Assembly: GCA_965216875.1 (NCBI GenBank)
Contig: OZ244207.1
Span: forward strand, 288,001 to 352,000
Source: Rubripirellula sp.
GTDB lineage: Bacteria > Planctomycetota > Planctomycetia > Pirellulales > Pirellulaceae
DNA length: 64,000 nucleotides
Reading direction: 5' to 3'
In this document: positions 37,168 to 58,212 of the stretch, piece after piece
Numbering within the stretch: the first letter of the stretch is position 1
Layout of the letters: every line of letters begins with the position of its first letter
The notes under the pieces: generated by a model
Database searches by the model: none
Seen by the model: only the letters and a program-made list of their open reading frames with translations
Told to the model about the DNA's origin: nothing
Translations under genes and position numbers: made by a program

Positions 37168-39335
37168 TTAAGGGTTCACAGTCAATCGTTTGGTCTGGTC
37201 GCTCGCCTGAGTCACGTCACCAATGACCGCCGTTTCAATGCCAGTTGTTTTCGAAATGGTGTTGGCTAGATCCTCGCAGGCGTCTGCGGCGACGCCCAAC
37301 AACAGTCCGCCGCACGTTTGTGGGTCAAAAAGCAGTTTGTAGACGGCTTGGTCTCGCAGTGTGATGTCAGCTTTGATCTTGCGATCGATGCGTCGATTCT
37401 GTGGTGCAAGCGTGCTTTCGATTCCCGCTTCGACCTGTTGGGTTGCGCCGATGAGGGTGGGAATGGATGCCAATGAGATTTCGGCCGCGACGTTACCTGT
37501 TTCAAGCATTTCGATCAGGTGACCACCGAGCCCGAAGCCGGTGATGTCGGTGCCCGCGCACACGCCTGCGGTGACGGCCAGGCCCGCGAGTTCATGTTGC
37601 CGCTCAAGCATCGTCGTGATCGCCGCGGTGTAGCCTGCGGCCGGACAGAGACTGCGCATGTGGGCGGCCAACAGGACTCCGATACCGATCGGTTTGGTGA
37701 GCAGGAGTTTGTCACCAACACGAAGTCGGTCCTTGTGCAGTAGGTTCTCGGAAATCGATCGTCCGATGACGGTAAAGCCGACTTCGAAACGGGGGCCGAC
37801 GATGGTGTGGCCGCCGACGATCTCGGCACCCATTGCGCCGAATTCTTCGCGTGCACCGGCCAGAAAGTCCGACAACATCTGACGCTGGGTCGCTGCGTTG
37901 CCCTCGGGCAAGACAACGTTCGCAAGCGCTTTGGTTGGCCGTGCTCCAGTGGCGATGATGTCGCTCGCTGAATGCAACGCGGCGACGCGCCCCGTGAGGT
38001 AGGCGTCATCGACGGGGCTTGTGAAAAAATCGGTTGATGCGATGAGTGTCTGTTGGTCGTCGCGCCCGATCGGCGCGGCGTCTTCAAGCTGGATCGGCTG
38101 GTCGCTTTGAAGGGCTTCTTCCAAGAGGTCGCCACCCAGTTTGCAACCGCAACCGCGGCACTGCATGTCGTCTTGGCCGGTCGTCCCATCCGGTGTCATC
38201 GACAACGGTTGGTACATCTCCATGAAACGTGTGTCGATCCGGTCCTTCATGCGCATCACCCACTGACCCTGAAAGGAGAACCCTTTCCATTGGCCGATGG
38301 CGTCGCCGTTGCCAAGGTTGATCAACTTCATGAATGAGGTTTGCGGCTGGTAGTCGACAAGCGGTCGCCCACTTAGGCCGCGTTGCAGATTGTCCCAAAG
38401 GATGGGGCCTTGGCGGACGGCATAGACTCCTGCTTTGGGAAGTTTCTGGTTCGCGATGGTGCCCGTGTCGCCGACGGCAAAAATGTTTCCGCCCGCCGTC
38501 GACTGCAACGTCGCGTCAGTCTCCAGAAAGCCGCGGTCGTCTACCGGTAGGCCAAGTCTCGACAGCAGCGGTGGTGCTGTCGCGCCCGTTGCCCAAACAA
38601 CAAGGTCGGCTTCAAGCTGCTGACCATCGTCAAGTGTTAGGTGCTGGTCGGTGACTTTCGCAACCGCTTTGCGTGTGTGGACGGTCACGCCGCGGCGACG
38701 GAGTTGACCGGCGACTCGGCGCCGCGTCGATTCGGCCACATCGGGAAGGACATCGTCGCTTCGCGTGATCAGAGTGATCGAGGGCTCCGCTCCGGTTTGT
38801 TGCTCGACAAAGGTTGGTAAGCAGAAACTGATTTCGATCCCCGCGACCCCTGCACCGACGATGGCGATGCGAAGTGCTTTTCGGTCTGTTCGTGCGATGG
38901 CATCATCGATTGCGCGGGCCAACCTCTCCATAAAGGTTTGCATCGGCTTGATGCGCAAGACATGTTGTTCGCCCGCTTCGAGTTCGCCATCGATTGGGAC
39001 TGAGCCGATACCAATCGACAACGCGTCGTAGGGAATCGCAGGTCGGTCGTCAAAAAGCAGCCGCCCGTTCGCTCGGTCGATTCCTGTGACGTCGTCGGTG
39101 ATCAGGCGTGCTCCGACCGAATTGCACAAGCGAACAAGGTCAATCTCCATCGCCGCTTGGGGGATTTGTCCCGCAAGGGCTGCCGGCAACATTCCAGAAT
39201 AGGTTGCCACGGTGTGATTCGAGACGCACGTCAGACTTGCGTCAGGAATCGGGTTCATCCCCCACATCCGCACGACGTGAGCGTTGGTGTGCCCGATGCC
39301 TAGCAGGACGACATGTTTGCTCGGCAGTCGCTCGA

Positions 39336-39339
<4 letters not shown>
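37168..39339 (-). CDS. selD: Selenide, water dikinase fused to an N-terminal NADH-dehydrogenase-like flavoprotein domain
   Basis: YSGMLP, YDALSIGIGS, VGAGVAG, PKAGVYAVRQG; then CRGCGCK, EDAA, STDFF, GGHT, TDITGFGL.GH, DPQTCGGLL. Confidence 0.93.
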
Positions 39340-40713
<1,374 letters not shown>

Positions 40714-40724
<11 letters not shown>

Positions 40725-42633
40725 CCGATTCCTCCGTCATCAACACTTCCTGTAACTTGGGTCCGGCCATCCTTGCGTTGTCGCGCCGCGTCGTCACACC
40801 CATTTTGTCGCAGTATTCCAAATAAGGGATCGCGTGTTTGCGGGTGACTTGCCAACGGTCACGGATTTCAGCGACGGATTGTTCCGGTTGCTGATCAAAC
40901 AACTCCCGCAATTCGCTACAGAGTTGCCGGAACATGTCGCTCGATATCAGGAATCCGTTGCCGAGGTCGACGAGTAAACGTTGTTGAGCCGCGAATCGAA
41001 CCAGCGACGCGATCGCATCGACTTTGGTGTCCATTTTGTCGGCCACTTCTTTGAGGGTCGGCGGCAAACGGTCACCGTCAAACATGCGAACGATTTGGTC
41101 CATTTTGGCACGTTGCTTCTTTGACAGAAGATTGTCTTCCGAAGCGATCGCTACCATTCTATTCAGTCGAACGATCGACTTTTCAGAAACCATTTTCGAC
41201 AACACCCAGCGAACCACCTCGGGGCTTCCTGTCGAACGGACCCGCTCAATCAACGAGGTTTCGACCGACCAGGCGTCCTCGGTCTCTTCGGCCTGCTTGG
41301 TCAGGATTTTCAACGCGTAGTTTTGGATCTTGGTGATCGTTTTCTCGGAAACCAGCCGCCCCTCGACCGGCATGGCGATGGCATCCTGTTTGAGCACTTG
41401 CTTGACGACGGCTGCGCACTGGGCGCGATCAATTCCGATTTGCAATTCGAACCGAACAGGATCGACTTCGACCTCGCCGAGCCAATGAATCCATGCGGTC
41501 AGACGCTCGGCCGCATCGCTACGGGCAAGGCTGCTGCCGAACTCGATAATCTGTTTGCCCGCGCCGAGCCTTGCTTCGATCGGCGCGAGCACGCGCCCGC
41601 CTCCAAAGGAACCGACGGGATAGGGACTGCGCAGTAAGAACTGTTGGTCGTACGTGGCCAACAATTCGTGTTCGGCATCGAGAACGGCAATCGTCGGCTC
41701 GCCAGGCTTGAGTTTCTTAGCGCCAGTGATACGTGCCGAACAGGCGCCCGTGGCGGTGTGCAGTTGAACGGTTGCCGGACATTTAATCTCGGCTGCATCG
41801 CGAAAGGTTGTGACTTCGACAACCATCCGTCGCACGGGCAAGTTTGCTGGAGGGGCGACCAGTTCATCACCACGGGATAGTTCCGCAGCGGAGACACCGG
41901 TGATGTTCATCGCCGTGCGATGCCCCGATGAAGATTGCTCGACCGATTCGCCGTGCACTTCCAACTCGCGCACTCGGACTGGAGTGCCTGTCACGCCAAC
42001 CTCGACGGTGTCACCCACCGACACCTGGCCACTCCACAGCGTTCCCGCCACGACGCAGCCACGCCCCGGAACGCTGAAGACACGATCGATCGGCATACGA
42101 AAGAACCCTTCGCTTGGCCGGTCACTTTGGCGGGCGTATCGGCAAAGTTGATCCTTCAGTTGGTCGATCCCTTCGCGCGTCACCGACGAAAAGGGAATCG
42201 TTGGCACATCGGTAAAGCCGTAGTCGGCGAGGAAGACTTCGAGTTCTTCGGAGAGTTCAAGACGCGTCTCTTCGTCTGATAGATCGATGCGTGAAATCGC
42301 AGCGATCAGTTTTTTCACGCCAAGCGTTTGCAGGATCGCGGCGTGCTCAAGCGTTTGTTGTTGGATGCCTTGATCACAGGCGACGACCAACAGACCGACG
42401 TCGATACCAGAAACACCGGCCAAGAGGTTGCCGATGTACTTTTGGTGTCCCGGGGCATCGATGAGTGCAAAGTCGTTTTCACCCTCGGTGAACGAGGCAA
42501 ATCCAAGGTCGATCGTGATCCCGCGCAGCTTCTCCTCGGGATGCGTGTCGGTGTCGACCCCTGTGAGGACACCGACGAGGGAAGTCTTGCCATGATCGAT
42601 GTGTCCGATCACGCCGACAATCGTATAGCTCAT
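40714..42633 (-). CDS. selB: Selenocysteine-specific translation elongation factor
   Basis: GHIDHGKT, PEEKLRGITIDLGF, DAPGH, RMPIDRVF, C-terminal TRKHAIPYLEYCD winged helix. Confidence 0.96.
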
Positions 42634-42888
42634 CGTTAGTTCGGCGTCCCTTCATTCGGCGTGCCAGCCGATCGGCAGGGTTGGGCGATCGGGAGGGGCT
42701 TGGTCTTTTGCGGAGGCTAATTATCTTCGCTGATACGGCGCCAGATCGCTACCACCGTGATGCGGCGGCACGCTTGTTGGTCGGACGCACGCGGTCCATC
42801 GCCAAGGTGATTGTTCCCTGTTCTCTGGCGGCCATCTGCGATAAGCTTGGCATCGATTTCTCAGCGATTCTCTGACAAAACCAACGAT

Positions 42889-43773
42889 ATGTCTCAACCC
42901 AAGATTGACGATACGTTCGCGGAAGCTTTCCCGATGCACGGAACGCGGTTGGTGTTCACGGCACTCGACCGTGAGCTTGCCAACGTGGCGGCGACCGAGT
43001 TTTGCGGGAATGCTTCAAGTGTGATCGGTTGCGACTGTGAGGCCGGAATCGAGAAGCAAGTCGATGCCGAAGAGACGATGGATGGTCGCCCGGGCGTCGC
43101 GGTGTTGGTCTTTGCGTTCAACCGCGAGTCGCTCGAAAAAGCGGTCACCGAGCGGATCGGCCAGAACGTTTTGACCTGCCCAACGACCGCCTGTTTTTCA
43201 GGTTTGGCGGCCACGACAAAAAAGAACCGCATCAAGGTCGGTGCACAGCTTCGTTTCTTTGGTGACGGACACCAGTTCTCGAAAAAGCTTGGTGACCGCC
43301 GCTTTTGGCGTGTTCCCGTGATGGATGGTGAATTCCTTTGTGACGACATTTCAGGAACGGTCAAAGGAATCGGTGGCGGCAATTTGCTGTTCGCTGCCGA
43401 GAGTCAAGTTGCTGCACTTACGGCGGCTCGCAAAGCGGCAGCAGCGATCGATGCACTGGACGATGTCATCATGCCTTTCCCCGCAGGGATCGTTCGATCA
43501 GGTTCGAAGGTGGGTTCGAAGTACGCCAAGATGAAGGCGAGCACGAACGACAAATGGTGCCCAACCCTACGCGGCCAAACCGATAGCGTTCTGGAAGAAA
43601 ATGAACGCGCGGTCTACGAGATTGTGATCGACGGTCTGAGCGAAGACTCGATTTCCGCAGCGATGAAGGCGGGGCTCGAAGCCGCCTCCGCCGTCGAAGG
43701 GGTCGTTCGTATTTCGGCCGGCAATTACGGCGGAAAGCTCGGCCCGCACCACTTCCATTTGCACCAACTGTAA
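42889..43773 (+). CDS. fhcD: Formylmethanofuran:tetrahydromethanopterin formyltransferase (Ftr/FhcD)
   Basis: IDDTFAEAF, SVIGCDCEAG, DGRPG, RIGQNVLTCPTTA, RFFGDG, GIVRSGSKVGSKY, ISAGNYGGKLG. Confidence 0.95.
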   Translation: MSQPKIDDTFAEAFPMHGTRLVFTALDRELANVAATEFCGNASSVIGCDCEAGIEKQVDAEETMDGRPGVAVLVFAFNRESLEKAVTERIGQNVLTCPTTACFSGLAATTKKNRIKVGAQLRFFGDGHQFSKKLGDRRFWRVPVMDGEFLCDDISGTVKGIGGGNLLFAAESQVAALTAARKAAAAIDALDDVIMPFPAGIVRSGSKVGSKYAKMKASTNDKWCPTLRGQTDSVLEENERAVYEIVIDGLSEDSISAAMKAGLEAASAVEGVVRISAGNYGGKLGPHHFHLHQL

Positions 43774-44086: not shown

Positions 44087-44425
44087 ATGCCGTCGCAACG
44101 CCTCCTTCTCAATCCGATTCGCACCGCCAAGCAGGGTGTGAATGTCAACGTTGGCAAAGATGGCGATGAATACAAGACGATCGTCACAACCCTGACGATC
44201 CACGCCAGTGACATGGAGGCCCTTGGGGTTTCTGACGGCGACACGGTTCGAGTGACCAGTGAATTTGGTGATGCCGAATTCAAATGCGAAACCGGCAAGG
44301 TTCCTGAAGGTATGATATTTGTGCCGTACGGCCCTCCCACTTGCAAACTGATGGGCGGAAACACCCATGGCACAGGCATGCCGACCAGCAAGGGTTGGGA
44401 AGTCGACGTCGAACCAATCGGTTAG
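44087..44425 (+). CDS. fwdD: Formylmethanofuran dehydrogenase subunit D (molybdopterin dinucleotide-binding domain)
   Basis: RTAKQG, DMEALGVSDGDTVRVTSEFG, PEGMIFVPYGP, THGTGMPTSKGWEV. Confidence 0.9.
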   Translation: MPSQRLLLNPIRTAKQGVNVNVGKDGDEYKTIVTTLTIHASDMEALGVSDGDTVRVTSEFGDAEFKCETGKVPEGMIFVPYGPPTCKLMGGNTHGTGMPTSKGWEVDVEPIG

Positions 44426-44743: not shown

Positions 44744-46084
44744 ATGGATTTGAACGTAATCAATAACGCAACTTGCACTTTTTGTGGTTGCGTTTGCGAC
44801 GACATCCAACTGCACCACGATGATGTTCGGATTCATCAAGCCAAGAATGCGTGCGTGTTGGGCAAGGCATGGTTCCTCAATCACACCGCCGAAAAGAAGT
44901 ATCCCGACGCACTTGTCGACGGCAAAGAAGCGACGCTTGATGAAGCGATCGAAGCGGCTGCAGAGCATCTTTATCATGCGGACATGCCGCTTGTGTACGG
45001 GATGAGCAATACGACCTGTGAAGCTCAGAAGGAGTGTGTGGCGATGGCCGACAAGCTTGGCGGCTTGCTCGACAGCCACACATCGTTGTGACATGGTCCA
45101 ACGGAAATCGCCGCCCAGTTGGGAGGCAAGGTCACCTGCACACTTGGCGAAGTCAAGAATCGCGCCGACTTTATCGTCTATTGGGGCGGTAATCCGGCCG
45201 AGTGCCACCCGCGTCACTTCACCAAGTACAGCTTGATGAAGAAGAGCAAGTTTTTGCCCAAGGGACGCAAAGACCGCACGATGGTGTTGGTCGACATTCG
45301 TGAAACCAAAAGCGCTAAAGCGTCGGACATTTTCCTGCAAGTGCGCCCTGGCAAAGATTTTGAATTGATCACGTTGCTTCGAGCGATGATCAAAGACCAA
45401 CCGGTCGACGATGCCCAGATCGAAGAAACCGGATTGACGCGAACCGAGGTCGAAGACTTCATCGCGCGAATGAAAGGGGCCAAGTTTGGTGTGATGTTCT
45501 TTGGCATGGGCTTGTCGATGACACGCGGCAAACACATGAACTCGGCGGCACTGTTGACGCTCGCGGCCGAGATGAACGCATTCACCAAGTTCGTCGCCAT
45601 GCCGATGCGAGGGCACGGCAACGTGACCGGCGCCGACGTGATCATGCGTTGGCAAACAGGTTACCCGTTCGGAATCACGTTCAATCGTGGCTACCCGCGA
45701 TACAATCCCGGCGAGTTTTCGACGGTGGACGTTTTGGTCCGCGGCGACACCGATGCGGCATTCATCATTGGTGCCGATCCGGGTGCGACAATGCCGCAGC
45801 CAGCGATCGATCATTTGGCGCGAATCCCGACCATCGTGCTCGACCCTCACGTGACCCATACCAGCAGGCTCTCGCGGGTTCATATCACCACCGCGCCGGC
45901 CGGCATCTGTGCACCCGGGACGGGTTATCGGATGGATGAAATTCCGCTACCGTTACGTCCTGCACTCAAGTCGCCCTACCCGACCGACGAAGAAGTCGTC
46001 CGCAGGATTCATGAAGCGATTTCAGCGAAGCCAGACTACATCGCTGAGCAAACACCACAGATGCTGACGTCCCAGATTTATTAG
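44744..46084 (+). CDS. fwdB: Formylmethanofuran dehydrogenase subunit B, selenocysteine-containing (U116)
   Basis: Track ORFs 44744-45091 and 45119-46084 are the same frame. CTFCGCVCDD...C cluster motif; DSHTSL-TGA-HGP at the conserved Cys ligand; TCTLGEVKNRAD, WGGNPAECHPRH, PMRGHGNVTG, YNPGE. Confidence 0.92.
45088..45135 (+). promoter_or_regulatory. Candidate bacterial SECIS element of fwdB
   Basis: Upper hairpin GCCGCCC-AGUU-GGGAGGC (45110-45127), loop 25 nt after UGA; lower stem GUGAC(45088-92)/GUCAC(45131-35) includes the UGA. Confidence 0.7.
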
Positions 46085-46169: not shown

Positions 46170-47804
46170 ATGCTCCGCATCTCGGGAGGCAAGGTCTACG
46201 ACCCGGCCAACGGAATCAACGGCGAAGTCCGAGATCTGTATATTTCCGACGGCAAGTTCGTCGCCGAAGGAGCGGCATCGCGCACGATCGACGCCACCGG
46301 AATGGTGATCTTTCCTGGCGGCGTCGACGTCCATACTCATGTTGCCGGTGGTTCGATTAACTTTGCCCGCGCGATGACCCCCGAAGATCATCGCCGCACG
46401 CAAGCTTTCATTCGTACGAAGACAACACGCAGTGGTTTGGGCGGGATGGCGCCAACCACGTTTGCCACCGGCTACCTCTATGCCGGTATGGGCTTCACGA
46501 CCGTTAACGAAGCGGCTGTCCCTGTTCTCTCGGCCCGCCACACTCACGAAGAGATGGCGGACATCCCGATTCTCGATAAGAGTAGTTTGGTCTTGATGGC
46601 CAACAACGAGATCATGATGGATCTGATCGAGAAGGGAGAGTACGAGCGAGCCAAGCAAGTGGTCGCTTGGTACATCTGGGCTGCGAAAGCCTATGGTGTG
46701 AAAGCGGTGAATCCGGGTGGCGTCGCAGCGTGGAAATGGGGTGACGACTCGAAACAACTCACGTCGCCGATCGCTGGTTTCAGCAAGCTGACTCCCGGCG
46801 GGATCGTCACCGCACTTTCGAAGATCGTTGACGACCTTGGGTTGCCGCATCCGATTCACTTGCACTGCAACAACCTTGGTGCACCGGGCAACATCAAGAC
46901 GACGCTTAATACGATCTCGCATCTCGAAGGCCGCCGCGCCCACTTGGCTCACCTTCAATATCACGCCTACGGTGGCGACGATTGGTCGACGATGTGTTCG
47001 GCGACCACCGAATTGGCCGAAGTTTTCAACAACAGTCCCAATTTGACGACCGATGCCGGTGCCGTCCTGTTTGGTGATACCGTGACGATCACCGCCGACG
47101 GCCCATGGCAACACTTGCTTTACAAGTTGACCGGCCGCAAATGGGGCAACATCGATGTCGAAAACGAAACTGGTTGCGGCATCGTTCCCTACACCTACAA
47201 GCCATCCAACCTGGTCAACGCCGTCCAATGGGCGAGCGGACTGGAATTGTTGCTGTTGATCAACGATCCATGGCGCGTGTTCCTTTCGACCGACCATCCC
47301 AACGGCGGCTGTTTTTGGCGGTATCCCGAAATCATCAAGCTGTTGATGTCGGCCGACTTCCGCAAAGAGTGCATGAAGTCGTTGCCAACCAACATCATGA
47401 ACAAGATCTCGTTGCCCGAGATTGACCGCGAATACACGCTGTATGAAATCGCCACGATTTCTTCGGCCGGACCGGCGCGTGCTTTGGGGCTGACTCAAAA
47501 AGGGTCGCTCGGTGTTGGCAAAGACGCTGACTTCGTCATTTACAACCAAGACGACGACGTCGAACGCATGTTCAGCCATCCTCGCTATGTCTTCAAGAGC
47601 GGCGCGATGGTGATCGAAGAAGGCGATATTCGCGAAACACCTGAAGGCAGCGAGTTTATCGTCAAGCCGGACTATGACCCGAACACGGACGAATTCATCA
47701 AGCCGTTGTTCGAAGAGTGCTACACGATGTCGTTCGAAAACTATCCGGTCGAGATGGAAAGAATTGAACGACCCGATATGCAAGATTGCATTGAAGTGGA
47801 ATGA
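46170..47804 (+). CDS. fwdA: Formylmethanofuran dehydrogenase subunit A (amidohydrolase; FwdA/FhcA)
   Basis: VYDPANG, DVHTHVAG, YGVKAVNPGG, HPIHLHCNNLG, HLQYHAYG, ETGCGIVP, STDHPNGG. Confidence 0.95.
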   Translation: MLRISGGKVYDPANGINGEVRDLYISDGKFVAEGAASRTIDATGMVIFPGGVDVHTHVAGGSINFARAMTPEDHRRTQAFIRTKTTRSGLGGMAPTTFATGYLYAGMGFTTVNEAAVPVLSARHTHEEMADIPILDKSSLVLMANNEIMMDLIEKGEYERAKQVVAWYIWAAKAYGVKAVNPGGVAAWKWGDDSKQLTSPIAGFSKLTPGGIVTALSKIVDDLGLPHPIHLHCNNLGAPGNIKTTLNTISHLEGRRAHLAHLQYHAYGGDDWSTMCSATTELAEVFNNSPNLTTDAGAVLFGDTVTITADGPWQHLLYKLTGRKWGNIDVENETGCGIVPYTYKPSNLVNAVQWASGLELLLLINDPWRVFLSTDHPNGGCFWRYPEIIKLLMSADFRKECMKSLPTNIMNKISLPEIDREYTLYEIATISSAGPARALGLTQKGSLGVGKDADFVIYNQDDDVERMFSHPRYVFKSGAMVIEEGDIRETPEGSEFIVKPDYDPNTDEFIKPLFEECYTMSFENYPVEMERIERPDMQDCIEVE

Positions 47805-48616
47805 GCAAGATTCGATTAACCCTAAAGAAGTCGCCAACCGTTCCCTTGGAAGCGGAAGTGTTGAGCCCCGATCGCTTGGCGGATTTGTCTCGCGACGAAA
47901 TCGCTGCGCTCACGCTTTATCACGGCAAACGCCAAGTTCGCATCGACGAGTTCTTTGATGTCGAAGGCGAAAAGAGCGAAGAGGTCGAAGTCGAAGGCGA
48001 CTTGAACAAGGTTCGCTGGATCGGCCGCGCGATGTCTCGCGGGACGCTTACCGTGCGCGGAAGCGTCGGGATGCATCTTGGCGCCCATATGACCGGTGGC
48101 GAAATCAACGTCGACGGCGATGCGGGCGATTGGATCGGCGCCGAAATGGCTGGTGGCACGATCCGTGTCAGCGGTAATGGCGGCGGGCAAATTGGCGCCG
48201 CCTACCGCGGCGCTCTCGTTGGCATGCGAGGCGGCACGATCATCATCGGCGGCACGGCTGGATTGGAAGTCGGCATGCGGATGCGTCGCGGCACGATCAT
48301 CATCGGTGGCGTCGTTCGCGACTTTGCTGGCCTGCAAATGAAAGGCGGAACGATCATCATGCTTAGCGGCGCGGAGATCCGCACTGGAGCTTGGATGAAT
48401 CGTGGCACGATCATTTCACTCAAACCGCTGCAAGTCCTGCCGACCTTCCGCTACTGCAGCGACTACAACCCGACGTTCATGAACGTCTACTCACGCGAAC
48501 TTGCAAAGCACGGAATCGATTTGCCGTACGATCCGAGCGAGGGCAGCTATTCCCGCTACACCGGCGACGCCTCGGTTCCCGGCAAAGGCGAGCTCCTCGT
48601 CTGGAACGCCAGCTAG
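47801..48616 (+). CDS. fwdC: Formylmethanofuran dehydrogenase subunit C (FwdC/FhcC)
   Basis: PLEAEVLSPD, repeated GxxMxGGxI beta-helix, LPTF, YTGD...GKGE; ATGA overlap with fwdA. Confidence 0.95.
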   Translation: MSKIRLTLKKSPTVPLEAEVLSPDRLADLSRDEIAALTLYHGKRQVRIDEFFDVEGEKSEEVEVEGDLNKVRWIGRAMSRGTLTVRGSVGMHLGAHMTGGEINVDGDAGDWIGAEMAGGTIRVSGNGGGQIGAAYRGALVGMRGGTIIIGGTAGLEVGMRMRRGTIIIGGVVRDFAGLQMKGGTIIMLSGAEIRTGAWMNRGTIISLKPLQVLPTFRYCSDYNPTFMNVYSRELAKHGIDLPYDPSEGSYSRYTGDASVPGKGELLVWNAS

Positions 48617-48788: not shown

Positions 48789-51700
48789 CTACTTCCACTC
48801 ATGGAGCAGTTTGCCGTCGGCGACGTTCCAGACGCGGACGACGCCGCTCTGCCCGCCAGCAACAAGTGTCTTGCCGTCTGGGGTCAGTGAGAGGGCAAAC
48901 AGGAAATCGCCGGAACTGTTGAACGACCGGAGCGATTTGCCGTTGCCTGTGTCGTGCAGCCGAACGTAACCATCGGCACAGGAGGTCAAGACTTGATTGG
49001 TCTTGGTCACGAATTGAATCGCGGTGATTTCCTTCGGGAAGCCTCCGATGGTTCGCCGTTGTTCGCCCGTGGCAATGTTCCAAACCTTGATGTTCTGGTC
49101 CGCACTGGCCGACGCGATCGTTTGGCCATCGTCTTGCCATGCAAGCGACAGAACATGATGCGTGTGCCCTTCGAGTGATCGAGAGGCCTTGCCTGTTGTG
49201 ATGTCGAGTAGCCGAACGGTTTTGTCGGCCGCCGAGGATGCCAGTCGCCGACCATCGGGTGAAAACTTGATGCCAAGCACGGTGTCGCTGTGAACGGCGC
49301 CAAAGTCTCGAACCAGTTGTCCTGTCATCGTCGAGAAGATCTGGACCTCGCCCGAGCGGCTCGGTGGGCCACTGCCGACGGCGATGGCCAAACCGTCAGG
49401 GCGAAAGTCGAGTGCGGTCACACGGTCCGAAATCAACGTGTCGTTGGGCGACCCGATCGAGCGAACCAATTGCCAGGGTGCATTGAGCGTCCAGCTCTGG
49501 GGCTGACGTGCGCTTCCGATCGCTGTGACTTGATCGCTGTTGAGTAGCACGCGGGTGATGGCACCGGTCGATTCGAACGATTCGATCGGTAGGCCGTCAT
49601 CGCGATAGAGCGTCACGTTGCCATCACCGTCTGCGGTGGCGAGTTGGGAGCCCGAATCGAAGGTGACGGCGGTCACCGGAACGCTGGTGAACTGTTGCTT
49701 TAGGTTCGAAAGACGTGTTTCAAGTGAGGTGTGTCGTCGAGTTTCGGCGGCGATCCGAGTCTTGTGATCGGGGATCGCTTGCTCGGCCCGTTTGTGGGCA
49801 AGCGTGGCGGTGTCAAAGGCTTGCTTGCGTTTGGCAACGTTCGTTTCACTTTTCTTTTTCGCCTCGTCCGCAGCGGTGAGTGCCTTTTTGTCGGCTTCGA
49901 GCTGCTTGGTGGATTTGTCCGTCGCTGCCTTTGCCGCTGCGATCGCTTTGTTAGCGGCATCCATCTCAGCCTTTGCCTTGGTGGCCGACTCAGCAGCTTT
50001 TGCGATTTGCATTTCACGGGTCGCAACTTCTTTGGCGAACTTATCGACCTCAGCTTGAGCTTGTTGCATTGCCTTGTTGGCGGCCTCGACTTGCTGCTTG
50101 GCCTTTTCCGCTGCCTCTTTGGCTTTGGCAAGTTGGTCGGCGAGAGGTTTAACCTCCGCCTTTAGCTTGTCCGACGTCGCATTGGCCGAGGCGAGCGTTT
50201 TGTTGGCACTGTCAAGCATCGTGTTCGCTGCGGCCGAGTCACTTTTTGCCTTTGCGATCGCCGCTTCCGTGCCGGTGACCTTTGCCGCTGCGTCGTTGCG
50301 TTTCTTTTCCTCCGCTGCTAAAGCTTCCACCGCCTTGTCACGTTCTTCGGTCACCTTTTTGAGAGCTTCGGTTTCGGCGGTCAGTGTCTTTTCCAAAGAT
50401 TCCGTTTGCTTGTTCAAGCGATCGACGGCCAACTTTTGACGGTCGGAATCGGATTGGGCACGGGCGAGCAATACACGAGTGCGCGGTTGACCCTCGAGTG
50501 TTAACAACGGCTTGGAGTCTGCGACATTCCACGTCTTGGTTTTTCCGTCGCGCCCGCCAGTTGCAAGTTTGCTGCCGTCGTTGGCAAACGCAACGGCATC
50601 GACGGGCGATCCATGATTGACCTTACGAAGCAGCTTGCCGCTGGTTGCATCGATCAAGAGGACTCCTTGCGATTCGCTGGCGACGGCCAAGGTCGGAGTG
50701 GGCTTCGCGGTTGCTGTGATCGCGGTTGCGTCGGCGACCGCCTTCAAGCCTTCGAAGGTTGCAGCGGCGAGCGAGGGTTTCGCAGCATCCAAACGCAGCG
50801 TCAGAACTTTCCGATCAGCAGTCCTCACTGCGATGAAATGTCCGTCGCCTGTCGTGACAAGGTCCACCAAAGGGCTTTGCACATCGAGCGTTGCCAACTC
50901 GTTGCCGTCGGCGACACGGTGCACGACAACGCGGCCTTGTGAGTCGCAATAGCAAAGCGCGTCTTTGGTCACGGCGAGTCCACAGACCGGATCACTGCCA
51001 ACGGCGATCGTCTGCTTGAGTGAGTTGTCGTTACCGCGAAGCTCGATGTCGCCGATCGCATTGACCAACGCGAATAGTGAGCGATCCTCGGTTGCGGACA
51101 CCAGGCCAGACGCGCCGGCAAGTGGCGACTGAGCAAGTGAACGCTCGGCGGAGCCCTTGGCCCAAATCTTGACGCTACGGAAGCCTCCCGTTGCGATCGT
51201 TTGTCCGTCGGGAGCAAACGCAATCGATTGAATCAGGTCGACATCGGCCACTTCTCCCTGCCCGCTTGAGGAGAGTGTTGGATCGACAAGCGAGCCGAGT
51301 TGCTGTTTGGTCGAGAGGTCAAAAACGCTGACACGGTTGCCGCGGCCCGTGGCGACAAGTCGACCATCAGGCGAAATGTCCATTGCGTAGATGGTGCGGA
51401 TCGATTCGGGAATCGGTTGGAACTCGATGACCCGTGCTTCCATCGAGTCGCTGCCGGACGCGCCTTGCTCGATCCATAACTTGATCAGCCCGAGTTCTTC
51501 GGGCGTGAGCGGCTTCGCCCCCACCGAGTTGTCCTCGGGCGGCATCAGTGGTTCTTCGGCGCCCGTAGCGCGAGTCAGCAACAGAGAGGCAGCGGCGTCT
51601 TTCGCCGTGACGGTTTCGCCGGTGTCACCACCCTTCATCAAGCTCGAGTGCGATTCGAGATTCAAGCCACCTTCGGATTCCTTTTCGTGATGGCATGCGA

Positions 51701-51866
51701 CGCAATTGCGTTTGAGCAGCGGCATGATCTCCTTTGCAAAGTCGACCGGCGCATCACGCTTCACTTCGGAAACGGGAATCGGCAGGTCGATGGCAAAGCA
51801 GAGAGGGGAAACCAGCAGTGATGCCAACGTCGTGGCAATCAAAGGAAAGCGACACAGTCTGATCAT
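48789..51866 (-). CDS. Planctomycete cytochrome c domain + WD40 repeats + long coiled coil
   Basis: VDFAKEIMPLLKRNCVACH, LMPP, WIEQGA; many WD40 repeats; A/K/E-rich central helix. Confidence 0.88.
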   Translation of the reverse strand: MIRLCRFPLIATTLASLLVSPLCFAIDLPIPVSEVKRDAPVDFAKEIMPLLKRNCVACHHEKESEGGLNLESHSSLMKGGDTGETVTAKDAAASLLLTRATGAEEPLMPPEDNSVGAKPLTPEELGLIKLWIEQGASGSDSMEARVIEFQPIPESIRTIYAMDISPDGRLVATGRGNRVSVFDLSTKQQLGSLVDPTLSSSGQGEVADVDLIQSIAFAPDGQTIATGGFRSVKIWAKGSAERSLAQSPLAGASGLVSATEDRSLFALVNAIGDIELRGNDNSLKQTIAVGSDPVCGLAVTKDALCYCDSQGRVVVHRVADGNELATLDVQSPLVDLVTTGDGHFIAVRTADRKVLTLRLDAAKPSLAAATFEGLKAVADATAITATAKPTPTLAVASESQGVLLIDATSGKLLRKVNHGSPVDAVAFANDGSKLATGGRDGKTKTWNVADSKPLLTLEGQPRTRVLLARAQSDSDRQKLAVDRLNKQTESLEKTLTAETEALKKVTEERDKAVEALAAEEKKRNDAAAKVTGTEAAIAKAKSDSAAANTMLDSANKTLASANATSDKLKAEVKPLADQLAKAKEAAEKAKQQVEAANKAMQQAQAEVDKFAKEVATREMQIAKAAESATKAKAEMDAANKAIAAAKAATDKSTKQLEADKKALTAADEAKKKSETNVAKRKQAFDTATLAHKRAEQAIPDHKTRIAAETRRHTSLETRLSNLKQQFTSVPVTAVTFDSGSQLATADGDGNVTLYRDDGLPIESFESTGAITRVLLNSDQVTAIGSARQPQSWTLNAPWQLVRSIGSPNDTLISDRVTALDFRPDGLAIAVGSGPPSRSGEVQIFSTMTGQLVRDFGAVHSDTVLGIKFSPDGRRLASSAADKTVRLLDITTGKASRSLEGHTHHVLSLAWQDDGQTIASASADQNIKVWNIATGEQRRTIGGFPKEITAIQFVTKTNQVLTSCADGYVRLHDTGNGKSLRSFNSSGDFLFALSLTPDGKTLVAGGQSGVVRVWNVADGKLLHEWK

Positions 51867-54043
51867 GGATCGACGACTCTCAGGGTCACGTTTGGGGAGG
51901 GCAGGAAAAGCGTCAGGTCTTGATCCTTGGCTGAGCCTTGCGCGGCGTTGACACGCTGGTCAGCGGTTTTGATCGCCGCTTTGATTGCGTCAAGCTGTGG
52001 GGCATTGGCCGGATCTTCACTGAGCTTTTGAAGGTGGGCTCGATACGCTTGGGCACGCTCGAGTGATTGGGGGTTGGGTTTGACCTTTAGTTTAGTTTCC
52101 GCTTGGAACCAGAGCGAATAAGTTCCGGCAGGAGCGTCTCCAGCCGCTTTGATTTCGAGCTCACCGGTCTCTTTGTCCGCGGCAATGGTCAGGTCGCCAC
52201 AGGTCACTTTGGGCGGCAAATCACGGGCGCGAAGCACGTAATTGACTTTGCCATTGTCGGCTCGAGTCAATTTCACAGGAATCTTCAGCGATTGACCTTT
52301 CTTCAGTTCGGCCACCGCTCCGTCGGAATGATGACCTTCGAAATGGACGCTCACCGGCAGGGTGTCTTTGTCCGAAACCGCAAGGGTCAACGCGGTCGTT
52401 TGACGGGATCGCACGAATTCTCGTAGCCTTCCTCGGCCCCAGCGGATGGCTGCAGGTTTGGCTTCAACGGTATACTCACCCTCTCCGATTCTCGCTTTGC
52501 CGGTGACCTTGGCATCGAACACAGCCGCTGGTGCATCGGTTGCCGCCGCGACCGTGATCTGTGTTTGGGTTTGATTGGCTGCGATCACAGCCGGTCCGGC
52601 GGTAACGCCCGTGGGTAAGCCATCGACCGTTAATTCGATTGCGCCGTTGAAGCCATCTTTGCGAATCGCAAAGACGCGTATTGCTTCGGTGCCGCCGCGA
52701 AAGAGTTGCGATCCGGCTTGGCGAAAGGCGTTGGCGTCTTTGTGTAAGAAGGGGCGGTAGGCGATCAGGTCGAATCCAGGTTCAGGTCGCCGGATGTCGA
52801 GGTAATATTGCTGGCGTCGACTCAGCATTTCGCCGGTATCAAGGTCTTTCACAACGGCGCGGTAGGTCGCTGATTCGGGAACGCTTAGCGTATGGCGACA
52901 GTCGGCGGACCAAAGTTTGATGCCGGCGTCGTTGATGTTCGGCATGTCATCGACGGTCGCGAGCGTTTTCCAAGTTCGGGTCTCGCTCTTGCCGTCAATC
53001 GCTTGTTCGATCACCAACCTGCAATCGGTCGGCTGCCCGATGCGTTCGGACACAACGTCGAATACGAAACGGTCACCTTTGTTGGCCGTGAACTCATAGG
53101 TGTCGACATCATGTTGATTGTCGAACCAAGCTTTCACCGTCGTGGGTAATGTGAGTGTCTTGGCATTTGAGGTTTCTTCGATCGCGGTGGCGCGAGCGTC
53201 AAGGCCATCGGGGATCGTGATGGCGGTCACGGAATCGAGTGTCGGAAGACCTTGTGACACATCGTCGTCAAACGCGGCGGCATGCTTTGCGTCTTGAGCA
53301 ACAAGCAAATAGGGATACTCTTCGCCACCACGATAGATCGCATCGTGGACTGCGAGTGTGAAGCTTGCCGGCGATTCGCTTTCAACGACGAGCGTTGGAT
53401 CGATGTCATCCGACCCTGTCTGCGTCATCACCGTGCGCCCTTTGGCATCAAGCAAAGTGAGGACCGGGATTGCTGCCGAATCGACTCGTGCTGCGAGGCA
53501 ATCGATCCGCAAGGTGCTGCCGGCATCGACATCGACTTGATAGTAGTGCACGTTGCCTGTGGCGGTTTTGGCGTGCACCATCGTCTTTGTCGCGAGCGCG
53601 GTTGGCTCGGCGGCGTTGGTACTTGGCGAGACCAACGCGTCGCTGTCGAGGGCGTGGACGAACAGCACACGCGGATTCGACACGCCATGTCGACCGACAC
53701 AGCGAACGTCATAACGCCCCGCGGGGACTTCTTCGGCAACCGTTACCCGAAAGTGTCCGTAGCGTGGTTGCCGCGATTCCTGGTACGGCAGCGGATCGTC
53801 GGTCAGCAACTCGGCCGAGATGCCAGGGTGCGAGAATCGAAGCTCGGTGACTTCATCAAGTCGTGAACCAGCGGATGGTCGCAGCTCAAAGGTTGTTCCC
53901 GACTTTGCGGCAACTTGCGAAACAGCAGTGAGTTCGTAGATGGGCAGCTGCGCGGAAGCGACCTTGACGCCAAGCAGCGCAAAGAGCGACAACGCGACGC
54001 GAGCGACCGATCGCTGAAGTGTTTTTGAAAGTAAACGTGGCAT
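51863..54043 (-). CDS. PPC-domain (pre-peptidase C-terminal) containing secreted protein
   Basis: GRYDVRCVGRHGVSNPR, DVDTYEF, YRGG..YPY.L; TGATG coupling to the upstream gene. Confidence 0.8.
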   Translation of the reverse strand: MPRLLSKTLQRSVARVALSLFALLGVKVASAQLPIYELTAVSQVAAKSGTTFELRPSAGSRLDEVTELRFSHPGISAELLTDDPLPYQESRQPRYGHFRVTVAEEVPAGRYDVRCVGRHGVSNPRVLFVHALDSDALVSPSTNAAEPTALATKTMVHAKTATGNVHYYQVDVDAGSTLRIDCLAARVDSAAIPVLTLLDAKGRTVMTQTGSDDIDPTLVVESESPASFTLAVHDAIYRGGEEYPYLLVAQDAKHAAAFDDDVSQGLPTLDSVTAITIPDGLDARATAIEETSNAKTLTLPTTVKAWFDNQHDVDTYEFTANKGDRFVFDVVSERIGQPTDCRLVIEQAIDGKSETRTWKTLATVDDMPNINDAGIKLWSADCRHTLSVPESATYRAVVKDLDTGEMLSRRQQYYLDIRRPEPGFDLIAYRPFLHKDANAFRQAGSQLFRGGTEAIRVFAIRKDGFNGAIELTVDGLPTGVTAGPAVIAANQTQTQITVAAATDAPAAVFDAKVTGKARIGEGEYTVEAKPAAIRWGRGRLREFVRSRQTTALTLAVSDKDTLPVSVHFEGHHSDGAVAELKKGQSLKIPVKLTRADNGKVNYVLRARDLPPKVTCGDLTIAADKETGELEIKAAGDAPAGTYSLWFQAETKLKVKPNPQSLERAQAYRAHLQKLSEDPANAPQLDAIKAAIKTADQRVNAAQGSAKDQDLTLFLPSPNVTLRVVDP

Positions 54044-56553
54044 CAGTGATTGAACATGAATTCTTTGGAATTGACCAATCCCCAAACCACGTCCTCGTAA
54101 GCTTGGCGGCGATCCTCCTTGCCTTGGACATACTTAACGGTTGCAGTGAGTTCTTCGTTGCGCGGCGATCGGCTGAAAGCGATCAAGTAGAGCTCGCGAA
54201 CCTTGTCTTCGTCGCTGCGCGGGTCGGAGGCCATCGATGCTGCGCGTCCATCGTCGGTCGATAGCTTGGCCTGCATCTCTTCCGAATTGAGCAGGTGCAA
54301 GCTTTGCGCGAGGTTGGCTTCCTGTGATCGTTCGCATTCGCAGGCGGTGCGCGCGTCGGGCTTTCCGAAGACATCAAGGAAGTAGGAACTGAACCCGGAG
54401 TCGGGCAGTTCAATCGCTCGTGTTCCGGCGGGCAAGCCTGCAAAGCTCGTGCGGCTTGACGCAACACGGTCCACTGCGTCGAGCAAGACTTCGGCGTTGA
54501 GACGTTTGGGATAGAAACGCGAATGACTGCGCCGGTCGGCGAGGTTGCCATCAGCAGCCTCGCTGGACGAACCGTACACGCGCGAGTTGCAAATCAGACG
54601 CACAAGATCCTTCAGGTCGTAACTCGATTCGACGAGCGAAGTCGCCATCGCGTCGAGTAACTCGGGATTAGAAGGAGGGTTGGTCACGCGCATGTCGTCT
54701 TCCGGTTCGACGATGCCGCGGCCCAGGAAGTGTTTCCAGTATCGATTGGCGAGTGAACGGGCAAAGAACGGATTGTTCGGGTTGGTCATCCAGTCGGCCA
54801 AGTGCTTTCGCGGGTCATCGGTCGTCGCGATCGCAAGCTCGCCGCCATCGAGTCCGGCTGGCTTCAAACCCTGTCTGGTTTTTGGATGGGGGGCCGATGC
54901 ACCTCCAACGCGAGAAATGAATCGCGGCTCGTTCTTGTCCGCCACATCCTTCTTGCTCACCAGCGTGAAGAAGGCGGACATTTGTGCGTAGTTCTTTTGG
55001 CTCCACTTTTCGTACGGGTGATGATGACACCGCGCACATTGAATGCGTTGCCCTAAGAAGAGCTGAGCGACATCTTCGACGCGTTGGTTGGTGTCGGGGA
55101 CTTGGCGAAGCCACGCGACTGCTGGGTTGCTTGCGACCGTGCCGGAAGCGGTGACCAGTTCACGGACCAATTGGTCGTACGGTTTGTTGACACGAAAACT
55201 CTCTTTCAACCAGCGGTGAAACGCCAGCGTGCTCAATTGCAAATTGCCGCCGTCACGCGAGTTGCGCAGGATGCCGCTCCATTTTTGAGCGAAGAAGCTT
55301 GCGTAGTCATCGCTATCAAGTAAGCGATCGACAAGCAGCGCTCGCTTGTCCCCGCGAGCGTCGTCAACAAACTCATTGACTTCGGCAAGCGTCGGTAACC
55401 GGCCAGCGATGTCGAGTGTGGTGCGCCGGATAAAGGTCGCGTCGTCACATGGAGGTGCGGGGGGAATGCCCAGTGATTTAAGTTTGGCGTAGACCTTTTC
55501 GTCGATCACGTTGTTTGGTTTTGGCCACTGCTCGTCGGTCCAATCGTTAGTGGCGCCGAGCGGTATGTCGGCTCGAAAGACCGTCACCTGTCCTTGAAAC
55601 CGAGCCATCACGGCGACATCGCCAAACATCTTTTCGAGTTTGACCAAGCCGTTTGGTGTCACGTCAGCCATTTCCGAATCATTCGACTCGTAGACCGCAG
55701 CGCCGGTGATGTCTTCGGTCGATCCGTCGGCATAGGTGGCAACGACTGAAAGTTGTTGCGTCGCACTCGCTTCGAGTCGGCGTTGTTTCGGAAACACGTC
55801 GATCGAAACGACTTCGTTGGCCGCTTCGCCCTTCTGCATGCCGGTGGCGATCCAACGCCGCAGCATACGATACTCGTGTGAGTCTTTCTCGAGTCGTTGG
55901 CCGCCACCATGGGGCGACGCGTTGATGGCTTTGGTCAGTAAAAGACTCTCGTCGGGCGAAGCTGGCGAAAGTCGACGTCCGCGTGATTCGACCACCAGAT
56001 GCTCGTAGTCTTCTTGTGGTTCGAAGCCAAGCAGCGAAAGTCGAAAGCCGTTTTGCCCTGCAATCTTGCCATGGCAGCCACCGCCGTTACAGCCCAACTT
56101 GGTAAAGATGGGGACGATCTGGCCGGCGAAGCTTGGTGGCACTTGGTGCCCAACGCCAGTCACTTCGATCGTGGTCGCGGCTTGCGTGCCTTGGTCGTCG
56201 ATCGCGGTGATTTGAACCGTGCCATCGGCGATCGGCGTTACCATCGCGGAGTCGATGCTGACGATTCCGCTGGGTTCCGTTTTGAATTCGACCTTGTGTG
56301 TCCAATCACGCAGATGGCCTGGTTCGAATTCGGCGGTGACGATCAATTGAAGCCGCGCGTCACGACCACGAAGCGTGCGCTCGAGCCCCTTGGGTTGCTC
56401 GTCGGTTGTCTCGGCAACGCCATTCTCAATTCGAAGCGACGAGGGTTTTTCAGCCTGCGCCGTCGCTGCACCATGGGATGTCATTGCCCCGATGAATAAC
56501 GCCATCACGCAATGGTTCGCGAAACGCAATGGCGTTCGACAAAGCAACGTCAT
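54043..56553 (-). CDS. DUF1549/DUF1553 (PSCyt2/PSD1) protein with Ig-like domains
   Basis: CNGGGCHG, FIRRTTLDIAGRLPT, CARCHHHP, NRYWKHFLGRG, CECER; start approximate. Confidence 0.92.
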   Translation of the reverse strand: MTLLCRTPLRFANHCVMALFIGAMTSHGAATAQAEKPSSLRIENGVAETTDEQPKGLERTLRGRDARLQLIVTAEFEPGHLRDWTHKVEFKTEPSGIVSIDSAMVTPIADGTVQITAIDDQGTQAATTIEVTGVGHQVPPSFAGQIVPIFTKLGCNGGGCHGKIAGQNGFRLSLLGFEPQEDYEHLVVESRGRRLSPASPDESLLLTKAINASPHGGGQRLEKDSHEYRMLRRWIATGMQKGEAANEVVSIDVFPKQRRLEASATQQLSVVATYADGSTEDITGAAVYESNDSEMADVTPNGLVKLEKMFGDVAVMARFQGQVTVFRADIPLGATNDWTDEQWPKPNNVIDEKVYAKLKSLGIPPAPPCDDATFIRRTTLDIAGRLPTLAEVNEFVDDARGDKRALLVDRLLDSDDYASFFAQKWSGILRNSRDGGNLQLSTLAFHRWLKESFRVNKPYDQLVRELVTASGTVASNPAVAWLRQVPDTNQRVEDVAQLFLGQRIQCARCHHHPYEKWSQKNYAQMSAFFTLVSKKDVADKNEPRFISRVGGASAPHPKTRQGLKPAGLDGGELAIATTDDPRKHLADWMTNPNNPFFARSLANRYWKHFLGRGIVEPEDDMRVTNPPSNPELLDAMATSLVESSYDLKDLVRLICNSRVYGSSSEAADGNLADRRSHSRFYPKRLNAEVLLDAVDRVASSRTSFAGLPAGTRAIELPDSGFSSYFLDVFGKPDARTACECERSQEANLAQSLHLLNSEEMQAKLSTDDGRAASMASDPRSDEDKVRELYLIAFSRSPRNEELTATVKYVQGKEDRRQAYEDVVWGLVNSKEFMFNH

Positions 56554-56627
56554 CAATACCAACTTGGTTGGAGAAACGAACGATTCCAATCTGGGAATGC
56601 GGGGGAAGGACTCTCGCAATGAAAACC

Positions 56628-56673
56628 ATTCCCTCCCCGGACTTTGCGTCCCAACCTCCCGCAAGCGGGAGGG
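56628..56673. repeat. CCCTCCC-family REP
   Basis: ATTCCCTCCCCGGACTTTGCGTCCCAACCTCCCGCAAGCGGGAGGG. Confidence 0.75.
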
Positions 56674-56695
56674 GGATTTCTGGTGCGCAATCGGA

Positions 56696-58042
56696 TTACG
56701 AAACCAGTTCGCTGATAGGTGGGTGATCAACTAAGTATTGCGGGCGACCGGTTGGATCCGGGATCGTGACCGTGGCGGTATCGATCCCCAAGTTGTGATA
56801 GAGGGTCGCCATGATCTCTTGCATGTGAACCGGACGGTTTGCCGGTTCTTCGCCCATGCGGTTGGTCGACCCGATCGCTTGTCCCGTGTTCATTCCGCCA
56901 CCGGCAAGGTAGGCGCAGCTCACGCGAGTCCAGTGGTCGCGACCAGCGTTCTTGTTGATCTTGGGTGTGCGTCCGAATTCGCCCCAAACCGCGATCGTCA
57001 CGTCATCAAGCATGCCGCGCTGATCAAGGTCTTCGATCAAGGCACTGAGTGCTTGATCGAGCTTGCCGCCGTGGTCTCGGACCAAATCAAAGTTCTGGCC
57101 GTGACTGTCCCAACGACCGAAACTGAGGCTGACAACACGGCAACCGGCTTCGATCAGTCGTCTTGCGATCAGAAGATGATCGTTGCACGTCGGGGCGCCG
57201 TCGTATTGGTAGTTGTAGGGTTTGCCGTCGCCGTAGCGCTCGACGATCTTCGGATCTTCTTTGCTCAAGTCGAGGGCGTCGACCATCTTGCTGCTGGTCA
57301 GGACGTCGAGGGCCCGTTTGCCAAAGGCATCCATTCCCTCCATCGTTCCGGTGATGTCGATGTCGCGACGCATCGTGTCGATTTGACCAAGCAGCTTGCG
57401 ACGGTCGGCAAGACGATCAAGGGTGATGCCATTGAGCGTCATGTTCTTCATGCCCTCGCCATCAGGCTTGAAGGGAGCATACGCCGAACCGAGGAAACCA
57501 GGTGTGCCTGAATCAGACCAAGGCACATGTTTCGTTTTGGCCGCCAATCCGACATAGGGTGGCACGGAGGGATCCACCGGACCGTAAAGTTTTGAAACGG
57601 CACTGCCGAGTGCGGGGCGTCCGCCAACACTGCGCAGGTCGTTTTTGTTCCAACCTGTCATGCATTGAAACGCCTCGTGACCGCCGCTGCATCCAACGAC
57701 GCTGCGAATCACTGCGGCTTTGTCCATCAGACCGGCAAGCTTCGGAAAGACTTCGCAGATCTCGATGCCGGGAACGTTTGTCTTGATCGGACTGAACTCG
57801 CCGCGAACTTCGCTCGGCGCGTCCGACTTGATTTCCCACATGTCCTGGTGAGGCGGTCCGCCGGCCAGGAAAATGTTGATGAGTGATTTCTGTGGTTTGG
57901 AATCTCCACTGGCTGCTTCGGCACGAAGCAAATCGGCGAGCGTGAAGCCGCCGACGCCAAAGGACAGACCACCAACTTTCAAGAAACCGCGTCGCGACAC
58001 TCCGTCGCAGAAACGGCTCGCTGGGCCAAGGATCGACAACAT
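56696..58042 (-). CDS. DUF1501 family Tat-exported protein
   Basis: [43 protein letters not shown]. Confidence 0.93.
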
Positions 58043-58212
58043 AGCAATCGCCGAAATTGAGGAAGGGATGGTGAGGCGGGCAACCGATGGTCGTTCGAAT
58101 TCCGTCGACCGACTAAGGGTTGTGAGATACCCATCGTAGCCCAACGAGTGCGCTTCCGGCAAGCTTTCCTCCCACGACCCACCCCGAAAGAGGGTTGCGC
58201 CTGTTCACCGGT

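Follow-up and report, generated by a model that had tools for sequence, protein, structure and literature searches.

A predicted selenocysteine-containing formylmethanofuran dehydrogenase subunit B gene with an in-frame SECIS-type hairpin in a planctomycete

To our knowledge, it has not been settled what the methanogen-like one-carbon genes do in planctomycetes.

In reviews, FwdB is counted as a verified selenoprotein of Methanopyrus (PMC13188914, PMC9312934). Among bacteria, a selenocysteine (Sec) form of the gene, fmdB, was reported in the planctomycete P2 and in two unclassified bacteria, three cases in all (Kim et al. 2016, PMC4807772). According to that report, the P2 gene was annotated as two genes and lies in an fmdD-fmdB-fmdA-fmdC operon, in a genome with a Cys-type second copy and a full sel set; Table S9 gives 'SECIS present: no' (bSECISearch). 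Since the P2 case had been reported, a bacterial Sec-FwdB is not new; on this point an earlier note on the present DNA, which named Sec forms from Methanococcales and Methanopyrus, is corrected. In PMC10100899, 149 bacterial FwdB matches were counted, revising the absence of bacterial FwdB noted in PMC7331816, which also claimed Sec as the ancestral ligand of the family. The bacterial complex is treated as a cofactor-less hydrolase in PMC6926001, and fwdD is given as not present in Planctomycetes in PMC5020050.

The Sec fwdB described here shares with P2 (as far as PMC4807772 describes it) the planctomycete host, split annotation, D-B-A-C gene order, Cys copy and sel set, and the two probably belong to the same clade. 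It differs from the published description of P2 in its conserved SECIS-type hairpin, its occurrence in at least 148 loci in several phyla, and the ftr and selBAD genes adjoining the cluster. While largely precedented otherwise, the present work adds the hairpin, the spread over Planctomycetota, Acidobacteriota and Rokubacteria, the separation from archaeal Sec genes in a tree and the co-occurrence with fwdD. A literature search, with most subscription journals lying outside it, returned no paper on a bacterial fwdB SECIS, its breadth or its separate origin.

The fwdB reading frame and the selenocysteine machinery

Features were located in the window, i.e. the whole 64-kb stretch of DNA analysed (Table 1). 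Translation confirmed the earlier proposal that two open reading frames, listed as 44744-45091 (115 aa) and 45119-46084 (321 aa, TTG start), share one frame and are parted only by a TGA, the single internal stop of the gene, with DSHTSL before it and HGP after it. The read-through protein scored 492.5 bits with TIGR03129 (cut-off 327.8, which ligand-less relatives also pass). Its alignment to archaeal FwdB ran over the full length (E 2e-110 to 8e-93 across five chains; 8e-106 for 5t5i_B), whereas that to FhcB (6s6y_B) was weak (E 5e-10). The residue encoded by codon 116 coincides with the Mo/W-ligand Cys118 of M. wolfeii FwdB; its counterparts are the C in the ASVCHGP motif of 5t5i_B and 8rja_B and the X in 9sfi_Q. 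The ligand position assigned to the TGA beforehand was thus borne out by solved structures. The active-site residues U116, H117, R289 and H291 correspond to Cys/Sec118, His119, Arg288 and His290 (M. wolfeii numbering), whose roles are taken from passages of PMC6926001 and PMC11656701, and all N-terminal [4Fe-4S] ligands (C11, C14, C18 and C37) are kept. The predicted structure (pLDDT 96, from an alignment of 96 sequences) gave TM-scores of 0.92 to 5t5i_B and 0.68 to FhcB; an earlier model built from 8 sequences (pLDDT 59.6) was left unused.

Table 1. Positions of the annotated features within the window
Feature	Coordinates	Strand	Basis and remarks
selD fusion (Cys form, GCGCK) with a pyridine nucleotide-disulfide oxidoreductase domain at the N terminus	37168..39339	-	TIGR00476 247.5 bits, TIGR03169 380.6 bits
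selA, Sec synthase	39336..40724	-	TIGR00474 507.8 bits
selB, Sec-specific elongation factor; carries the SECIS-binding winged-helix domain	40714..42633	-	TIGR00475 343.8 bits, PF09107
ftr/fhcD formyltransferase	42811..43773	+	TIGR03119 411.5 bits; likely ATG start 42889
fwdD/fmdD, domain capping pterin cofactor	44087..44425	+	PF01568, NF042908 (below cut-off); E 8e-14 to 5t5i_D
fwdB/fmdB	44744..46084	+	446 aa with TGA read as Sec; TIGR03129
In-frame TGA, predicted selenocysteine, Mo/W ligand position	45089..45091	+	codon 116; alignment and conservation
Predicted bacterial SECIS upper stem-loop, GCCGCCC-AGUU-GGGAGGC	45110..45127	+	loop 45117-45120; overlaps codons A123-G128
fwdA/fmdA binuclear amidohydrolase	46170..47804	+	TIGR03121 684.6 bits; metal-ligand motifs present
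fwdC/fmdC	47801..48616	+	TIGR03122 267.8 bits, cut-off 130.65

Among the best 80 of at least 599 pattern matches in genome contigs, 79 loci covered codon 116; it was TGA in 75, which were 64-91% identical to the window gene and free of other stops in the aligned region, and TGT in the remaining four, all at 54-56% identity. The residues HGPTE (codons 117-121) were invariant in 76/76 TGA rows while their third positions varied; this stretch, upstream of the first start codon after the TGA, is thus translated. A contig from a second study covers the DNA in full and differs at 16 positions, codon 116 not among them; 13 of the substitutions lie inside fwdB and, by arithmetic on the contig comparison, all 13 are third-position changes. 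Of the other runs compared, X4 may be the origin of the present DNA, and X6 and X8 do not reach codon 116. The TGA is no assembly error, a check made on contigs rather than raw reads. Decoding of TGA as Trp or general read-through was rejected, with TGA terminating 1169 of 3342 long training ORFs and Cys as the aligned residue. From these comparisons, fwdB is almost certainly one gene and not two, its internal stop coding for selenocysteine, and Sec recoding of UGA-116 is held with very high confidence.

As had been anticipated, annotation pipelines hide the gene: 108 of the 120 best protein-database matches were C-terminal fragments starting after residue 116, none carried U, and TTG-126 had been chosen as start by gene callers in 86. 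For the source genome itself, the entry is a fragment of 282 aa. Sec fwdB genes are, in effect, hidden in protein databases as fragments.

The selB, selA and SelD-fusion genes expected close by were found 2.1-7.6 kb upstream of fwdB on the opposite strand, and the requisite tRNA-Sec lies outside the window (C1 c7784436-7784530; Rfam RF01852, 71.5 bits vs cut-off 47). In the phylum sample, selA was present in 10/10 other TGA-fwdB genomes vs 7/40 without TGA (one below cut-off). A tRNA-Sec (at least 65 bits) was found in 15/15 TGA genomes vs 6/15 with operon-type Cys genes; the compared genomes are kin, and these counts are not independent trials. Linkage of sel genes to fwdB (within 10 kb) was seen in 7/79 loci among the best 80 of at least 599 matches, and in 3/24 of those with long flanks on both sides; the seven linked loci had two arrangements, either as in the window or with selD immediately preceding fwdD.

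FwdB as the sole selenoprotein maintaining the Sec trait was considered and rejected: nine of 24 hand-picked other TGA candidates in the source genome have a redox domain spanning the TGA. These nine further probable selenoproteins are located on C1 (L257-L274) at 6090558(-), 1772173(+), 5006761(+), 1259663(-), 8114242(-), 3799792(+), 4481819(-), 1685310(+) and 353597(+). The spanning domains are BCP peroxiredoxin, AhpC/TSA redoxin, HMA, rhodanese, DUF3179, thioredoxin-like, deiodinase-like, ArsC (above the cut-off of NF041106) and YciW/CMD; the selenoproteome predicted for this genome is probably sizeable. Three more TGA candidates, C1 3658658(-) (L271), 5002400(-) (L257) and 1386418(-) (L264), have no domain spanning the codon; among them are a long unannotated protein (GGL-U-PGCKS, AGUUU-loop hairpin), an FG-GAP repeat protein (VY-U-CIAS, AGUUU loop) and a thioredoxin-like protein, possibly representing undescribed selenoprotein families.

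Several other features were recorded. Two big tRNA arrays lie at C1 c591000-607000 and c628016-632638 (~17 and ~31 genes), a tRNA-Ile(TAT) being part of one of them, and ARAGORN returned a CTA-anticodon tRNA at C1 c3282034-3282109. Within the window, a long antisense ORF (23849-27139, minus strand; 1096 aa, no NCBIfam match) and a gene for a 1120-aa heme/PQQ-type dehydrogenase (27075-30437, plus strand) were noted, and a DUF1501-DUF1549/1553-PPC-WD40 cluster typical of planctomycetes lies downstream of fwdC (48789-58162, minus strand).

A candidate SECIS hairpin in the coding sequence

The GU-containing hairpin loop that the earlier note had placed 25 nt downstream of the TGA was found there: an AGUU loop begins 25 nt past the UGA on a 7-bp stem, of which six pairs form in the window copy (one G.A mismatch), with an MFE of -10.9 to -12.4 kcal/mol. 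It falls within every published constraint on bacterial SECIS elements as summarised in the Fig. 2 legend of PMC13188914, namely a loop of 3-9 nt, an upper stem of 4-16 bp, a G in the first two loop positions, a distance of 16-37 nt from the UGA and an MFE of at most -7.5 kcal/mol. Folding of the hairpin alone did not exceed chance level (dinucleotide shuffles: z = +0.80 over 52 nt, -1.30 over 36 nt; synonymous recoding: z = -0.38). The support for it comes from conservation among relatives and not from the folding of a single sequence.

In 86 TGA loci from a protein search, Gln125 was encoded by CAG in 86/86 and Leu126 by TTG in 85/85, codons used elsewhere in the gene at 69% and 21%, respectively; the exception at position 126 was GTG in one locus (L074), which is also a start codon. 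The five windows of lowest synonymous entropy, out of 140, all start at codons 121-125 in these loci. Among 148 dereplicated TGA loci, many of which were found by a DNA pattern fixing codons up to 122 and thus leaving the hairpin outside, the full 7-bp stem was present in 127 and lacked one pair in 21, and the AGUU loop was present in 147. A codon-usage null for the same peptides gave means of 12 (full stem) and 21 (loop), with maxima of 21 and 34 in 200 draws. The full stem was found in 0/21 Cys forms, and the fold was absent from 15 archaeal Sec genes.

No two-sided compensatory changes were detected and the covariation score was not above shuffles, which is to be expected of a sequence in which two out of every three bases are set by the protein. 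Five of the seven pairs varied on one side with pairing kept, and 95.8% of cells were paired vs 29-55% when slid. Five other TGA candidates in the source genome showed, by eye, AGUU-containing loops. Rfam gave no match in the 64-kb window, and a promoter and terminator scan of it returned results at chance level. The hairpin is best read as a putative SECIS held by strong synonymous constraint across relatives, and it is this constraint over 148 loci that lends support to the in-frame bacterial element proposed in the earlier note.

Gene cluster, distribution and descent

The cluster has the order ftr-fwdD-fwdB-fwdA-fwdC, with fwdD, fwdA and fwdC adjoining fwdB and co-directional with it; the fwdD frame is open from 43985, its likely start being the ATG at 44087. 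FwdA, encoded by the sole copy found in the source genome (1 match), scored 475 bits with archaeal FwdA vs 359 bits with FhcA. Among the best 80 of at least 599 matches, fwdD was found upstream of fwdB in 65/68, fwdA downstream in 38/45 and ftr within 3 kb upstream in 19/59 of the TGA loci with enough flank; no other conserved neighbour, including fwdF/fwdG-like or ferredoxin-type genes, was seen in 79 loci of the same set, and profile searches found neither FwdF nor FwdG in the window cluster.

The phylum sample comprised 401 genomes, with only four candidates scored per genome. A TIGR03129 match (E <= 1e-40) was obtained in 51, and 11 of these, the source genome included, had one TGA. A ligand-intact B gene together with D was present in 25/50 sampled planctomycete genomes with a B-type gene, in ten of them as Sec. 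In a 60-genome phylum sample, fwdD was detected with the query used in 10/10 Sec genomes, 15/15 genomes with operon-type Cys genes and 0/35 others; as judged from these matches, bacterial Sec-fwdB co-occurs strictly with fwdD in the phylum sample. The 25 sampled planctomycete genomes with fwdD speak against the statement on its absence in PMC5020050.

By record title, the at least 148 distinct TGA loci belong to Planctomycetota (110), Acidobacteriota (18), Rokubacteria (3) and Ca. Sysuimicrobiota (1), with 12 unlabelled; four titled Pseudomonadota or Nitrososphaerota were taken to be binning errors. The alternation of TGA and TGC at codon 116 that the earlier note had suggested looking for is almost lacking inside the clade, Cys forms occurring in neighbouring clades: the clade motif gave at least 120 matches with TGA in genome contigs vs one with TGY. 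The latter (L357 3587-5005, a Gemmataceae MAG) has TGC, an intact hairpin, selA and tRNA-Sec and no fwdD match, and reflects either a recent change or an assembly error. An archaeal-style motif gave 78 pattern matches, of which 15 encode FwdB, all archaeal by title, and revealed no further bacterial type. The cultured Stieleria marina K23_9, whose genome is complete, carries a Sec fwdB with selA and tRNA-Sec, which makes the question directly testable.

A quick, unrooted tree was built from 67 rows, including 15/149 Sec loci (L163 was dropped because its alignment was too short); groups were named after viewing the tree, and several rows lacked taxonomy. The bacterial Sec genes formed one branch (SH-aLRT 99), with Cys forms as the sister and next branches, and archaeal Sec and Cys genes grouped apart (support 100). 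Forcing the bacterial Sec genes together with the archaeal Sec-containing branch was rejected (p-AU 1.2e-5), on this unrooted tree with groups named post hoc. The simplest reading of the branching order would be an independent Cys-to-Sec gain in bacteria; ancestral Sec with many losses is a possible history as well. The bacterial Sec tree also bears on the claim of ancestral Sec made in PMC7331816.

In several rows of the Sec branch, including an Anatilimnocola protein cluster, the ligand is lost (Ser, Thr, Asn or Arg), and the repetition of this loss points to a dehydrogenase that is dispensable in some lineages. The source genome has one fwdC, one fwdA and two B genes. The second B gene (C1:3900814-3902106) is a stop-free, stand-alone TIGR03129 gene with no fwdD or fwdA nearby; its product keeps Cys-His and Arg, has Gln in place of His291 and clusters with ligand-less copies, and a counterpart exists in Stieleria marina. 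The branch that contains it (support 100) lies apart and has Cys, Ser or Phe at the ligand site; its members often lack the ligand and fwdD. Six further B-family proteins (P0136, P0138, P0139, P0143, P0148 and P0158; 570-606 aa) have ~140-165 extra N-terminal residues and are probably fwdD-fwdB fusions.

Proposed role, alternatives and comparison with known systems

The source genome has mch, two fae genes, one mtd, a mobA-like gene (below cut-off), moeA and a stand-alone FdxA-type ferredoxin. No match to fdhD was found in it, leaving the route for a sulfido ligand unexplained; a TupA-like search returned only a PstS match, and a ModA-like match was below cut-off. An orphan NuoEF and HoxU-like/polyferredoxin pair (C1:3136573-3140841, minus strand) was not supported as electron partner, being present in 10/66 genomes, in 1/10 phylum-sample Sec genomes and in four genomes without a B match. 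It consists of a NuoE/F fusion followed by an 817-aa protein, with no adjoining catalytic subunit; the 817-aa protein combines a HoxU/NuoG-type Fe-S region with cNMP-binding domains and a second ferredoxin region.

The best overall explanation, to which a probability of about 0.8 is assigned, is a single Sec fwdB whose product acts within a cofactor-loaded FwdABCD complex together with Ftr in the oxidative direction. SelB would bind the hairpin in the coding sequence, whereupon the ribosome would read UGA-116 as Sec. As suggested by the ligands present, Sec116 would be a ligand to Mo or W in a bis-pterin cofactor that FwdD would cap, and FwdB would carry one [4Fe-4S] cluster. FwdA, FwdC, Ftr and FwdB/D could then carry out the terminal step of the one-carbon pathway based on H4MPT and methanofuran: Fae, Mtd and Mch would convert formaldehyde to formyl-H4MPT, Ftr would hand the formyl moiety on to the furan carrier, formate would be released by FwdA, and Sec-FwdB/D would oxidise it to CO2, passing electrons via the cluster to a soluble carrier, possibly the FdxA-type ferredoxin. 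A cofactor-loaded, active dehydrogenase is likely on these grounds. Given activity, the oxidative direction is probable, though held a little less firmly; it is favoured because CO2 reduction requires about -0.53 V (PMC11656701) and a low-potential partner is not linked.

The best-surviving alternative is an active enzyme working towards formyl-furan, with CO2 reduced either to supply biosynthesis or to dispose of electrons. The core subunits are nearer to archaeal Fwd than to Fhc, the methanogen Sec forms work in this direction (as given in PMC13188914) and the FdxA-type ferredoxin is at hand, but the potential named above, with no polyferredoxin or bifurcating partner linked, and the two fae genes with mtd, which point to formaldehyde oxidation, render it unlikely. 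It is more doubtful still that Sec is inserted into a pterin-free scaffold like Methylorubrum FhcB, in a complex that only releases formate. The missing fdhD match, the lack of a linked electron-transfer subunit in 79 loci (best 80 of at least 599 matches) and the repeated loss of the ligand within the clade would fit such a scaffold, which is also what the only structurally studied bacterial homologue is (PMC6926001); yet every feature lost in FhcB according to the same source is present here, FwdD and the [4Fe-4S] domain included, 148 loci have kept the Sec codon, which is costly, along with its hairpin, and the model is closer to FwdB than to FhcB.

A truly split gene, with the 115-aa piece and a 321-aa piece started at TTG-126 assembling in trans, is very improbable. 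An invariant TTG-126, a variant that is again a start codon and the choice made by gene callers speak for it; against it, residues 117-125, which such a scheme leaves untranslated, keep their amino acids while their codons vary synonymously, the catalytic Sec/Cys-His pair would be absent, the neighbouring CAG is equally invariant and has no explanation in a start codon, and the trait tracks selA and tRNA-Sec. A pseudogene or sequencing error, for which the TGC with intact hairpin in L357 and the second, stop-free TIGR03129 gene could be cited, can be dismissed in view of the TGA in 75/79 relatives (best 80 of at least 599 matches) and in the independent contig with its exclusively third-position changes in the gene.

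Returning to the oxidative Sec-FwdABCD reading, a selenium-dependent switch is conceivable since one fwdA and one fwdC are accompanied by two B genes. Tentatively, the A/C/Ftr core might be toggled by selenium availability between a form that produces CO2 (Sec-B with D) and one that releases formate (stand-alone B), within a wider picture of an independent Sec gain with its own SECIS and a widespread working dehydrogenase without FwdF/G in Planctomycetota, Acidobacteriota and Rokubacteria. Taken as a whole, the interpretation given in the earlier note was supported.

Among known systems, the Sec-FwdB of the archaeal Methanococcales and Methanopyrus (TIGR03129, UHxP; PMC13188914, Table 1; 9sfi_Q) agrees with the present one in codon position, UHGP motif, fold and DBAC set. 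It differs in that its SECIS lies in the untranslated region (as described in PMC13188914), whereas the recoding hairpin here lies inside the coding sequence, and in falling on a separate tree branch; moreover, fwdF/G were not found near fwdB here (79 loci; best 80 of at least 599 matches), whereas the methanogen Fwd/Fmd holo-complex has the electron-transfer subunits FwdF/FwdG, not found at the present cluster. FhcABCD of Methylorubrum extorquens (6s6y) is likewise bacterial, has ftr/fhcD clustered with the A, B and C genes and, in the account of PMC6926001, stands at the end of the H4MPT formaldehyde oxidation route, as proposed here; in contrast, its FhcB is described there as being without the metal ligand, the His and Arg residues, the Fe-S domain and FwdD. 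Each of these is retained in the window cluster. With the bacterial Sec formate dehydrogenases (FdhF/FdhH, FdnG), FwdB shares the UHxP-type ligand, the bis-pterin fold (Foldseek E 3e-22 to 1fdi) and an in-frame SECIS, here a predicted one, whose apical loop contains a G, but here the fourth domain is encoded by a separate gene, fwdD, the partner is an amidohydrolase, and the formate dehydrogenase profile TIGR01591 gave 53 bits vs a cut-off of 666.
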